From Escherichia coli (lineage in GTDB: Bacteria > Pseudomonadota > Gammaproteobacteria > Enterobacterales > Enterobacteriaceae), in NCBI RefSeq assembly GCF_013122565.1, contig NZ_CP053258.1: 64,000 bases of DNA. The stretch is one strand, 5' to 3'. Below are positions 291 to 2,597 of this stretch, piece by piece. Made by a program: the position numbers and the translations under genes. The notes beneath the pieces are model-generated. The model did no database searches and was not told the origin of the DNA. It worked only from the letters and a program-made list of their open reading frames with translations. Each line of letters begins with the position of its first letter. Within the stretch, counting starts at the first letter, position 1.

Positions 291-405
291 AAATCCATGA
301 AAAACTAAGTGGCTAACCGCGAGAGAGATCAAATAAACCACACCAAAAGAATGGTAATAATGTGGCCTCTTTTCATTATCTCCCGTGGTACGGGGAAGGA
401 AAATC

Positions 406-1557
406 ATGTCACTTGTCACCGATCTACCCGCCATTTTCGATCAGTTCTCTGAAGCTCGCCAGAAAGGCTTTCTCACCGTCATGGATCTCAAGGAGCGCGG
501 CATTCCGCTGGTTGGCACTTACTGCACCTTTATGCCGCAAGAGATCCCGATGGCAGCCGGTGCGGTTGTGGTTTCGCTCTGTTCCACCTCTGATGAAACC
601 ATTGAAGAAGCGGAGAAAGATCTGCCGCGCAACCTCTGCCCGCTGATTAAAAGCAGCTACGGCTTCGGCAAAACCGATAAATGCCCCTACTTCTACTTTT
701 CTGATCTGGTGGTCGGTGAAACCACCTGCGACGGCAAAAAGAAAATGTATGAATACATGGCGGAGTTTAAGCCTGTTCATGTGATGCAGCTGCCGAACAG
801 CGTTAAGGACGATGCCTCGCGTGCGTTATGGAAAGCCGAGATGCTGCGCTTGCAAAAAACGGTAGAAGAACGTTTTGGGCACGAGATTAGCGAAGATGCT
901 CTGCGCGATGCCATTGCGCTGAAAAACCGCGAACGTCGCGCACTGGCCAACTTTTATCATCTTGGGCAGTTAAATCCTCCGGCGCTTAGCGGCAGCGACA
1001 TTCTGAAAGTGGTCTACGGCGCAACCTTCCGTTTTGACAAAGAAGCGTTGATCAATGAACTGGACGCGATGACCGCCCGCGTTCGTCAGCAATGGGAAGA
1101 AGGCCAGCGGCTGGACCCGCGTCCACGCATATTAATCACCGGCTGCCCGATTGGCGGCGCAGCAGAGAAAGTGGTGCGCGCGATTGAAGAGAATGGCGGC
1201 TGGGTTGTCGGTTATGAAAACTGCACCGGGGCGAAAGCGACCGAGCAATGCGTGGCAGAAACGGGCGATGTCTACGACGCGCTGGCGGATAAATATCTGG
1301 CGATTGGCTGCTCCTGTGTTTCGCCGAACGATCAGCGCCTGAAAATGCTCAGCCAGATGGTGGAAGAATATCAGGTCGATGGCGTAGTTGATGTGATTTT
1401 GCAGGCGTGCCATACCTACGCGGTGGAATCGCTGGCGATTAAACGTCATGTGCGTCAGCAGCACAACATTCCTTATATCGCTATTGAAACAGACTACTCC
1501 ACCTCAGATGTCGGGCAGCTCAGTACCCGTGTCGCGGCCTTTATTGAGATGCTGTAA
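406..1557 (+). CDS. yjiM: 2-hydroxyacyl-CoA dehydratase family protein (HgdB/component D-like)
   Basis: ORF 385..1557; likely start is the ATG at 406 (MSLVTDLP...) preceded by GGAAGGA with 5-nt spacer; cysteine-containing dehydratase-like sequence; gives 383 aa. Confidence 0.8.
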   Translation: MSLVTDLPAIFDQFSEARQKGFLTVMDLKERGIPLVGTYCTFMPQEIPMAAGAVVVSLCSTSDETIEEAEKDLPRNLCPLIKSSYGFGKTDKCPYFYFSDLVVGETTCDGKKKMYEYMAEFKPVHVMQLPNSVKDDASRALWKAEMLRLQKTVEERFGHEISEDALRDAIALKNRERRALANFYHLGQLNPPALSGSDILKVVYGATFRFDKEALINELDAMTARVRQQWEEGQRLDPRPRILITGCPIGGAAEKVVRAIEENGGWVVGYENCTGAKATEQCVAETGDVYDALADKYLAIGCSCVSPNDQRLKMLSQMVEEYQVDGVVDVILQACHTYAVESLAIKRHVRQQHNIPYIAIETDYSTSDVGQLSTRVAAFIEML

Positions 1558-1560
1558 GGA

Positions 1561-2334
1561 GTGGCAGTGACATATTCGATTGGCATTGATTCTGGTTCTA
1601 CCGCCACCAAAGGGATCTTACTGGCAGACGGCGTGATTACGCGCCGTTTCCTCGTTCCAACACCCTTTCGTCCGGCAACAGCAATTACTGAAGCCTGGGA
1701 AACTCTGCGCGAAGGGTTAGAGACATCGCCGTTTCTGACGCTCACCGGCTATGGACGACAACTGGTGGATTTTGCCGATAAACAAGTGACGGAAATCTCC
1801 TGTCACGGGCTGGGCGCACGGTTTCTTGCGCCAGCAACGCGCGCGGTAATCGACATCGGTGGTCAGGACAGCAAAGTGATTCAGCTTGATGATGATGGTA
1901 ACCTGTGCGATTTCCTGATGAATGACAAATGCGCGGCGGGCACCGGGCGTTTCCTGGAGGTGATCTCGCGCACGCTTGGCACCAGCGTCGAGCAACTCGA
2001 CAGCATTACCGAAAATGTCACGCCGCATGCCATTACAAGTATGTGCACAGTGTTTGCTGAATCAGAAGTGATCAGCCTGCGCTCAGCGGGCGTCGCGCCA
2101 GAAGCGATTCTCGCCGGAGTGATTAACGCGATGGCGCGGAGGAGTGCCAATTTCATTGCTCGTCTCTCCTGTGAAGCGCCGATTCTGTTTACTGGTGGCG
2201 TTAGTCATTGCCAGACGTTTGCCCGGATGCTGGAATCTCACCTGCGAATGCCGGTAAATACCCATCCTGATGCGCAATTTGCTGGCGCAATTGGCGCGGC
2301 GGTAATTGGTCAACGAGTGAGAAAAAGCCAATGA
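1561..2334 (+). CDS. yjiL: BadF/BadG/BcrA/BcrD-type ATPase, activator of 2-hydroxyacyl-CoA dehydratase
   Basis: N-terminal GIDSGSTATKG acetate/sugar-kinase-fold phosphate loop, DIGGQDSK motif; 4 nt downstream of yjiM stop. Confidence 0.8.
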   Translation: MAVTYSIGIDSGSTATKGILLADGVITRRFLVPTPFRPATAITEAWETLREGLETSPFLTLTGYGRQLVDFADKQVTEISCHGLGARFLAPATRAVIDIGGQDSKVIQLDDDGNLCDFLMNDKCAAGTGRFLEVISRTLGTSVEQLDSITENVTPHAITSMCTVFAESEVISLRSAGVAPEAILAGVINAMARRSANFIARLSCEAPILFTGGVSHCQTFARMLESHLRMPVNTHPDAQFAGAIGAAVIGQRVRKSQ

Positions 2335-2597
2335 AAGAGTTTTTATTTTTATTTCACTCCACGGTCGGCGTCATACAAACCCGCAAGGCGTTGCAGGCAG
2401 CGGGCATGACTTTTCGCGTCAGCGATATTCCCCGTGATTTACGCGGCGGCTGCGGGTTATGCATTTGGCTGACCTGTCCCCCCGGCGAGGAAATACAATG
2501 GGTGATCCCTGGGCAAACCGAAGCGATATATTGCCAGCAGGGCAGCGACTGGCAGTGCGTGGTGCATTACGATGCAGAAGCGTCAACCAGGCAATAA
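2331..2597 (+). CDS. small protein possibly of the DUF3343 type, co-operonic with yjiL
   Basis: ATGA overlap with yjiL stop (2331-2334); 88 aa; family assignment from memory only. Confidence 0.35.
   Translation: MKEFLFLFHSTVGVIQTRKALQAAGMTFRVSDIPRDLRGGCGLCIWLTCPPGEEIQWVIPGQTEAIYCQQGSDWQCVVHYDAEASTRQ

Follow-up and report, generated by a model that had tools for sequence, protein, structure and literature searches.

The yjiM-yjiL-ytiA operon of Escherichia coli: a predicted double-cubane cluster protein, its ATP-dependent reductase and a candidate third component

How a protein of the 2-hydroxyacyl-coenzyme A (CoA) dehydratase superfamily could work when only one structural subunit is encoded beside its activator is the question raised by an operon at positions 385-2597 of a 64,000-nucleotide stretch of the Escherichia coli genome (contig NZ_CP053258.1, assembly GCF_013122565.1; the whole stretch is hereafter called the window). 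The sequence-only reading of this DNA had described there a single dehydratase-family subunit, an activator and a trailing open reading frame (ORF) of 88 amino acids, and had considered substrate and partner unclear. An ORF check of the window finds three co-oriented ORFs on the + strand, as described, which correspond to yjiM, yjiL and ytiA; all three are already annotated in RefSeq and in E. coli K-12, and the operon is a known system. The best explanation overall, to which we give a probability of about 0.6, is that yjiM-yjiL-ytiA is a three-gene anaerobic module activated by FNR. Its components are the following:

406..1557, + strand: yjiM, predicted class II double-cubane cluster protein (DCCP) of 383 amino acids (NF040772, 6ENO/7YYL matches, RefSeq name)
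1567..2334, + strand: yjiL, predicted ATP-dependent [4Fe-4S] reductase ('archerase', DCCP-R type) of 255 amino acids with a GTG start (TIGR00241, PF01869, PDB matches)
2331..2597, + strand: ytiA-type gene of 88 amino acids, PF11823/DUF3343 'putative Se/S carrier' (Pfam; the K-12 ytiA is b4715)

The placement of YjiM in the HGD-D superfamily holds (PF06050, E=7e-122), and within this superfamily the protein passes the NCBIfam equivalog NF040772 over its full length (532.2 bits against a cut-off of 350; 1-372 of 372), the family that Jeoung and Dobbek call sequence cluster IV, in line with its RefSeq product name, 'double-cubane-cluster-containing anaerobic reductase'. Its closest solved relatives (6ENO/7YYL, E=6e-75, 40% identity over 365 residues) are structures of the DCCP of Carboxydothermus hydrogenoformans, a homodimer in which each subunit holds one [8Fe-9S] cluster (PMC7317905). 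This DCCP and its reductase work together as an ATP-dependent system of two components, and its cluster can be reduced by the reductase with ATP only (PMC7317905; PMC9351452). The DCCP motif consists of six cluster-ligand cysteines and a seventh cysteine nearby (PMC7317905), and in YjiM it is complete, as C40, C59, C78, C108, C273, C302 and C335 align with the 6ENO cysteines. Among 34 YjiM homologues of 31-48% identity, C59 is at least 90% conserved and the other six are invariant. The N-terminal cysteine spacings of YjiM (18, 18 and 29) equal those of 6ENO when counted by hand in its sequence; the published motif formula gives 19 for the first spacing (PMC7317905). By homology, YjiM is thus predicted to be a homodimer, with C40, C78, C108, C273, C302 and C335 as the ligands of one [8Fe-9S] cluster in each subunit. 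The alignment to 6ENO begins at residue 26 of YjiM and residue 62 of the Carboxydothermus protein, of which YjiM lacks roughly 36 N-terminal residues. According to Jeoung and Dobbek, these residues form helices that close the substrate channel; for want of them, they placed the E. coli YjiM/YjiL pair in a 'class II' of DCCPs, as a probable member, for which a larger substrate is possible (PMC7317905).

YjiL proves to be an activator of the BadF/BcrA type, as had been proposed, with matches to PF01869 (E=1.5e-76) and TIGR00241 (362.3 bits, cut-off 125.4). Its PDB matches are HadI (4EHT, E=1.5e-52), HgdC (1HUX) and the Carboxydothermus reductase DCCP-R (7YYL_E, E=9e-46). The phosphate motifs of ASKHA ATPases are present (GIDSGST and DIGGQD), and C122 (in NDKCAAGTGRF) and C160 (in CTVFAESE) align with the HadI cysteines; going by the HgdC and HadI structures, we take these two residues to be the inter-subunit [4Fe-4S] ligands. 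YjiL would accordingly be, by homology, a homodimeric ASKHA ATPase with a bridging [4Fe-4S] cluster. The pairing of yjiM with such an ATPase gene repeats the organisation of CHY_0487/CHY_0488 in C. hydrogenoformans, for which a two-component ATP-driven mechanism has been described (PMC9351452). That YjiM and YjiL are a DCCP and its reductase is very probable.

These assignments bear directly on the apparently missing subunit. Classical 2-hydroxyacyl-CoA dehydratases (HgdAB-HgdC, HadBC-HadI, FldBC-FldI) are alpha/beta heterodimers with one three-cysteine [4Fe-4S] cluster per subunit and CoA-ester substrates (PMC7317905). They have the superfamily in common with YjiM/YjiL (PF06050; PF01869/TIGR00241 for the activator), work by the same principle of ATP-driven electron injection and provide, with HadI and HgdC, the best solved matches of YjiL. 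The view that YjiM is one subunit of such an enzyme, whose partner is encoded elsewhere or has been lost, can appeal to this membership and to the detectable similarity of YjiM to HadC and BzdN/BcrC. It is contradicted by the equivalog scores of the dehydratase subunits, which YjiM fails by far (HadC 95.3 bits, cut-off 700; HadB 20.2 bits, cut-off 750) while passing NF040772, by the seven-cysteine double-cubane motif in place of the three-cysteine pattern and by the homodimeric state of the nearest solved relative. Moreover, the window contains one HGD-D-family gene and one activase gene, no second HGD-D gene being found in its 64 kb, and every gamma-proteobacterial DCCP locus likewise has a single such gene. 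Neither CoA-transferase nor 2-hydroxyacid dehydrogenase pathway genes occur among the neighbours of yjiML (yjiN, mdtM, espX6, yjiK and yjiJ). As far as sequence analysis reaches, the classical-dehydratase reading appears refuted, and we consider it very improbable. The comparison with HgdAB/HgdC that had been suggested, carried out here with HadBC and HgdC, shows a related superfamily and a different family: the operon belongs, by homology, to a sister family of the 2-hydroxyacyl-CoA dehydratases, and since a DCCP acts as a homodimer, no second structural subunit is needed and none is missing. The one-subunit puzzle is in fact already answered in the published double-cubane literature. A more distant homology links YjiM to BzdN/BcrC, and YjiL to BzdQ/BcrA/BcrD, of the class I benzoyl-CoA reductases (BcrABCD, BzdNOPQ, MbdNOPQ). 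These enzymes, unlike YjiM, have four subunits; YjiM scores far below the cut-offs of their equivalogs (79 against 454 and 60 against 421), and no aromatic-degradation genes lie near yjiML. Judging from the title of one recent paper, class I benzoyl-CoA reductases reportedly contain an [8Fe-9S] cluster as well.

In contrast with the Carboxydothermus pair, the E. coli operon adds a third, translationally overlapped gene. The longest yjiM frame opens at GTG 385, and the start used in RefSeq and K-12 is ATG 406, which is preceded by GGAAGGA. The yjiM stop codon occupies 1555-1557 and is overlapped by an AGGAG (1557-1561); the GTG of yjiL (1567) follows nine bases past the stop, so that these two genes are closely spaced and not overlapping, and translational coupling between them, which had been asserted, is just plausible. 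The small ORF does overlap its predecessor, as had been described: the ytiA ATG at 2331 and the yjiL stop (TGA, 2332-2334) share the sequence ATGA. The same ATGA overlap with a DUF3343 gene is found in the Superficieibacter, Citrobacter, Hafnia and Brachyspira loci.

The small ORF had been singled out as worth attention, with the proviso that its absence or disruption in most orthologous loci would speak against the operon as described; it is found intact and conserved, and it is a real gene. The hidden Markov model search that had been suggested for it assigns it to PF11823 (DUF3343), named 'putative Se/S carrier protein-like', with 49.2 bits where 25 is the gathering cut-off, and its length of 88 amino acids falls in the range of 80-100 typical of the family. 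Of 5426 complete E. coli genomes, 5385 have the region, and a coding sequence (CDS) is annotated there in all 40 rows sampled evenly down the ranking of E. coli matches. Citrobacter, Klebsiella, Raoultella, Kosakonia, Phytobacter and Atlantibacter (at least eight enterobacterial genera in all) have orthologues that are 54-79% identical, while for YjiM the identity across these genera is 86-89%. The conserved core comprises codons 1-62 with the loop DIPRDLRGGCGLC, and the stretch DIPRxLRxGCGLC is invariant among the enterobacterial orthologues. A conserved cysteine has been described for PF11823 (PMC5322559), and all the members of the family that were compared, 15 enterobacterial and 18 distant, have the C41 of YtiA, C44 being mainly enterobacterial. 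Core dN/dS (the ratio of nonsynonymous to synonymous substitution rates) against other genera is about 0.08-0.16, an approximate value with synonymous sites near saturation, and the core is under purifying selection. In the AlphaFold2 model of YtiA (pLDDT 87.5), the chain forms a small alpha/beta domain in which strands 2 and 3 flank the invariant loop. A Foldseek search with this model returned generic ferredoxin-like/PII-like matches only, the best in the PDB being PII/GlnK proteins, and a PDB sequence search gave chance-level matches only (E of at least 0.044) and no solved relative.

Beyond codon 62, in contrast, the YtiA tail evolves almost freely. The K-12 protein has 85 amino acids and that of the window 88; their identity is near-perfect to about codon 62 and collapses from about position 2517, which delimits one further feature:

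2517..2597, + strand: part of the ytiA allele sharply unlike K-12 (pairwise alignment with K-12)

Since identity to K-12 collapses at about 2517 and just 644 of the 5385 genomes match the 3' end found in the window, the boundary of the espX6 island downstream reaches into the last third of ytiA. The fast divergence of the last 25 codons, which differ between E. coli lineages, could suggest a chance or decaying frame without function, and the E. coli protein is undescribed in the literature searched, where the query 'ytiA' returned only the unrelated Bacillus ytiA/rpmE2. This idea conflicts with the Pfam match above the gathering score, the orthologues with an invariant motif across genera, the low core dN/dS, the confident model, the annotation in every sampled genome and a synteny kept beyond the Enterobacteriaceae, and it is hardly credible. 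The weakest match of the E. coli survey, in strain STEC306 (L086, NZ_CP091016.1, 1-2717), is a rare disrupted locus: prophage tail-fibre genes abut a 5'-truncated DUF3343 CDS, with prophage where yjiL should be, and the same record has a second matching place.

Is this third gene a regular companion of DCCPs? One genome per species was scanned with a DCCP alignment, which yielded 80 loci from other species (49-97% identity to YjiM; 921 kb), and DUF3343 neighbours were collected over these loci with an iterated profile, linkage being defined by a distance of 6 kb. In this set, 17 loci contain a total of 18 DUF3343 ORFs (E of 2.5e-20 or lower; next match 0.33), 12 of which lie on the same strand as a DCCP or activase gene and within 154 nt of it, in several gene orders. 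One DUF3343 per 50 kb is far above chance for a family of few copies per genome, on a rough comparison in which the background is an estimate and not a measurement; the 64-kb window contains exactly one. The domain is found beside class II and beside class I-like DCCPs (for this comparison, paralogues inside the genome loci that are 52-55% identical to 6ENO). The orders comprise DCCP-activase-DUF3343, DUF3343-DCCP-activase, an overlapping activase-DUF3343 pair (Brachyspira) and, in four Firmicutes loci, a class I-like DCCP followed by DUF3343 and then the activase. The order of the E. coli operon, with its overlap, is kept in Superficieibacter, Citrobacter, a proteobacterial metagenome-assembled genome, Hafnia and Aeromonas; the contig of E. 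albertii stops short of the DUF3343 position. Because the flanks of the cassette are wholly different in Hafnia (rapA-rluA and djlA-lptD) and Aeromonas (an ABC-2 transporter and mauE-rhodanese), the three genes travel as a unit. In Aeromonas lacus (L008, 8246-9230), the genes after DUF3343, which overlap its stop, encode a MauE/DoxX-type membrane protein and a rhodanese-domain sulfurtransferase, the latter being one more gene of sulfur transfer that adjoins the cassette.

Ten long DCCP homologues contained no natural DCCP-DUF3343 fusion; seen instead were fusions to an activase or to an FHA domain and DCCP domains in tandem, and the 110-residue linker of one protein (P0335) is of low complexity. 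Unusual DCCP architectures include two tandem double HGD-D proteins of about 860 amino acids (P0265 and P0270) and a protein with a C-terminal FHA domain (P0346). Another DCCP (P0271) has a very cysteine-rich N-terminal extension of about 200 amino acids, and in Dorea (P0242; L077, 5986-8154; L079, 5309-7450) a 383-amino-acid DCCP is extended C-terminally by about 340 amino acids with a helix-turn-helix-like end, to 713-722 amino acids, the extension being a fused regulator-like domain or else an artefact of gene calling.

Taken with the conservation of the gene, the linkage makes it probable that YtiA is a functional partner of YjiM/YjiL. In the literature searched, no paper links DUF3343 to DCCPs as a third component: the DCCP papers describe a two-component system with the PF11823 gene unmentioned (PMC7317905; PMC9351452), and DUF3343 is never mentioned in the preprint in which NF040772 was built (bioRxiv 10.1101/2022.07.06.499078). 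The recurrence of PF11823 as the third gene of DCCP/reductase pairs of both classes may therefore be regarded as a comparative-genomics lead that is not stated in that literature.

The anaerobic regulation of the operon had been proposed as a further check, and published data agree with it. yjiML is listed in FNR category 1, the directly activated operons, on the strength of a chromatin immunoprecipitation sequencing (ChIP-seq) peak and of an FNR-dependent anaerobic increase (Myers et al., PMC3688515); yjiM is also up on oxygen depletion in E. coli O157:H7 (PMC2241611), and it is cited elsewhere too as a gene of the FNR regulon. The region upstream of the operon consists of two features:

33..290, + strand: 3' end of yjiN (DUF445), the upstream neighbour, outside the module (PF04286, E=3e-29; annotated yjiN in K-12 and PapRG-04-4)
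291..405, + strand: yjiN-yjiM intergenic region, the presumed promoter region (Shine-Dalgarno-like GGAAGGA at 393-399; degenerate FNR-like site at 319-332)

Only two positions of the intergenic region differ from K-12. A scan for consensus promoters and terminators found no strong sigma-70 site in 291..405 and nothing convincing for the operon, and no Rfam family matched window positions 1-6500. One FNR-like match lies within the yjiN end at 192-205 (TTTATTCGTGTCAA), with two mismatches to TTGATN4ATCAA and a frequency in the window at chance level, and the other, at 319-332, has three mismatches and a perfect right half (ATCAA) and is not above chance.

What the module might do is suggested by the company that DUF3343 keeps. 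In nine loci of Clostridia, Lachnospiraceae, other Bacillota and Brachyspira, the DCCP, the activase and DUF3343 cluster with a class-V pyridoxal phosphate enzyme (PF00266, the cysteine desulfurase/selenocysteine lyase family), all four genes being contiguous and co-oriented in seven of them; six of these nine loci also encode a YedF-like TusA+DsrE protein, and one has a YedE-like PF04143 transporter. The wider census of neighbours over the 80 loci was as follows:

Activase: 49 of 80 loci by the clustering census (50 by direct search, within 6 kb of the DCCP)
ABC ATPases: 21 of 80 loci
DUF3343: 17 of 80 loci
PF00266: 11 of 80 loci
URO-D-type methyltransferases: 9 of 80 loci
B12-binding proteins: 7 of 80 loci
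TusA-DsrE: 7 of 80 loci
RACo (ATP-dependent reductive activator of corrinoid proteins): 6 of 80 loci

As the census is mixed, YjiM-type DCCPs occur in more than one context. A second context, which recurs in seven of the loci, is that of URO-D-family methyltransferases, B12-binding corrinoid proteins and RACo, and it hints that the DCCPs of these organisms have another class of substrate.

Several published observations, made separately, point in the same direction as the PF00266 loci. DUF3343 has been proposed as a Se/S chaperone, and the YedE/YedF/selenocysteine-lyase/DUF3343 set as one for Se or S trafficking (Lin et al., PMC5322559); in the STRING table for Slackia in that work, DUF3343 is linked to an activase and 'HGD subunits' inside a sel gene cluster. 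The genes duf3343 and yedF are among the top five overlapping selD (bioRxiv 10.1101/2022.04.13.486033), 955 of 970 NF040772 proteins are from SelD-positive genomes (bioRxiv 10.1101/2022.07.06.499078), and yjiLM shares one anaerobic E. coli iModulon with yedEF, ynjE and the ynj transporter, which its authors connected with molybdenum and selenium usage (PMC7888660). With YtiA as a PF11823 member that has the conserved cysteine of the family, the E. coli operon resembles the clusters described by Lin et al. in 2015, inside which YjiM-type DCCPs and activases sit in Clostridia, Lachnospiraceae and Brachyspira and whose yedEF genes are co-regulated with yjiLM in E. coli. In contrast to these clusters, the reductase genes of E. 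coli adjoin the DUF3343 gene alone, yedEF, selD and the desulfurases being encoded elsewhere.

These elements can be combined into a mechanism, modelled on the Carboxydothermus system for its first steps. Reduced YjiL would dock on YjiM and, by hydrolysing ATP, drive an electron of low potential into the YjiM double cubane, which in its reduced state could then reduce a substrate beyond the reach of ordinary cellular reductants. YtiA, placed in the system by gene linkage, would be a small ferredoxin-like third component whose Cys41, on the exposed loop, carries a sulfur or selenium species. It would offer YjiM S(0) or Se(0) in carrier-bound form, as a persulfide, a perselenide or a selenotrisulfide; the ATP-driven reduction would yield sulfide or selenide, and this product would feed the selenophosphate synthetase SelD or related users of S or Se under anaerobiosis. 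We advance the specific chalcogen-reduction step tentatively, as a possibility with the odds against it.

The desulfurase-linked loci are equally compatible with the main rival, in which YtiA is a maturation factor that supplies the single mu2-bridging sulfide (or selenide, in SelD-positive organisms) joining the two [4Fe-4S] cubanes of YjiM, while YjiM itself acts on a larger organic substrate, e.g., a CoA ester. The linkage of DCCP, DUF3343 and PF00266 applies to it just as well; a desulfurase, a TusA-like protein and a small cysteine carrier make up a typical sulfur-relay set for cofactor assembly, and the association of DUF3343 with both class I-like and class II DCCPs fits a role at the level of the cofactor over one at the level of the substrate. 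The open channel of YjiM suits a CoA ester or larger substrate (Jeoung and Dobbek, PMC7317905), and a selenium-bridged analogue of the 8Fe-9S cofactor was raised by Haft as a formal possibility for the co-occurrence with SelD. However, overproduction in E. coli gave a Carboxydothermus DCCP with its [8Fe-9S] cluster in place, with no co-expressed partner described (PMC7317905), most DCCP loci have no adjoining DUF3343, and the present data fit delivery to the cofactor and delivery as substrate alike. A maturation role for YtiA is therefore somewhat doubtful in our estimate.

The fold of YtiA invites another alternative, that of a regulatory or redox accessory acting on YjiL, either as a PII-like ligand sensor or as a CxxC thiol-disulfide/electron mediator, and not as a chalcogen carrier. 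In PII proteins, the T-loop occupies the place between strands 2 and 3 that the invariant loop has in the ferredoxin-like/PII-like YtiA model; PII/GlnK proteins are its best Foldseek matches in the PDB, and the enterobacterial protein has a C41-G-L-C44 motif. Yet only C41 is kept family-wide, the CxxC pair not being a feature of the family, and what recurs nearby is a desulfurase and a TusA-like protein, not regulators. This alternative is accordingly unlikely. Compared with the substrate-carrier and maturation readings, the regulatory or redox YtiA, the classical dehydratase and the non-functional ORF are progressively less likely.

A number of points weigh against the three-gene FNR-activated module and its proposed chemistry. 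The FNR motif matches upstream of yjiM are weak, and the yjiML ChIP peak printed in Table 1 of PMC3688515 (3,463,910) is off the K-12 yjiM (4,564,699-4,565,850; about 4.566 Mb), probably by an error of the table or of its extraction. No DUF3343 lies within 6 kb of the DCCP in 63 of the 80 loci, although this is weak negative evidence, since 30 of the 80 lack even the obligatory activase at that distance. DCCPs beside corrinoid methyltransferase/RACo genes or ABC transporters suggest diverse substrates, and the E. coli cassette has no adjoining desulfurase or TusA gene. The Se/S role of PF11823 is itself a prediction from comparative genomics, and the homodimer, the [8Fe-9S] cluster and the ATP coupling of YjiM/YjiL are extrapolated from a protein of 40% identity. 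Finally, the reduction of a persulfide needs no ATP-boosted electron, and only the selenium version would have a thermodynamic rationale, given by the very low potential of the Se(0)/HSe- couple.

The gene identities, the family assignment and the anaerobic regulation of yjiM-yjiL-ytiA are already known; the linkage, the co-regulation with yedEF and the co-occurrence with SelD could point together to Se/S trafficking under anaerobiosis. In its broadest form this would make the operon the E. coli representative of a chalcogen module of wide distribution, in which an ATP-boosted double-cubane reductase and a PF11823 cysteine carrier either generate selenide for SelD (from Se(0), perselenide or selenotrisulfide) or build a selenium- or sulfur-bridged double cubane, a generalisation that is speculative and may well prove wrong. 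If true, it would provide the first physiological role for DCCPs and fill the step of reduction and trafficking upstream of selenophosphate synthesis. The pieces of this idea, namely the co-occurrence with SelD, the overlap of duf3343 with selD and the iModulon shared by yedEF and yjiLM, have been published separately. A DCCP substrate is most easily sought in E. coli, where the linkage makes DCCP physiology directly testable.

At least 80% of the 2.6-kb stretch is carried by 5365 of the 5426 complete E. coli genomes, at 90-99% identity, which puts its features far beyond chance, and the neighbours are mdtM and yjiN upstream and espX6, yjiK and yjiJ downstream. Past position 2700, the GC content falls from 0.51 to 0.27-0.34 in an island that encodes an espX6-type pentapeptide-repeat effector and is followed by a yjiK-type SdiA-regulated gene; over the low-GC stretch as a whole (about 2700-5100) it is 0.27-0.40, against about 0.52 in the flanks. 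In K-12, from which espX6 is absent, ytiA is directly followed by yjiK. The effector gene (2909-5071, + strand) encodes a pentapeptide-repeat protein of 720 amino acids, annotated as espX6, a type III secretion system effector, in the closest genome, with internal KD repeats and a proline/threonine-rich repeat block (ATPATSATS..., PQIPETPQIPET).

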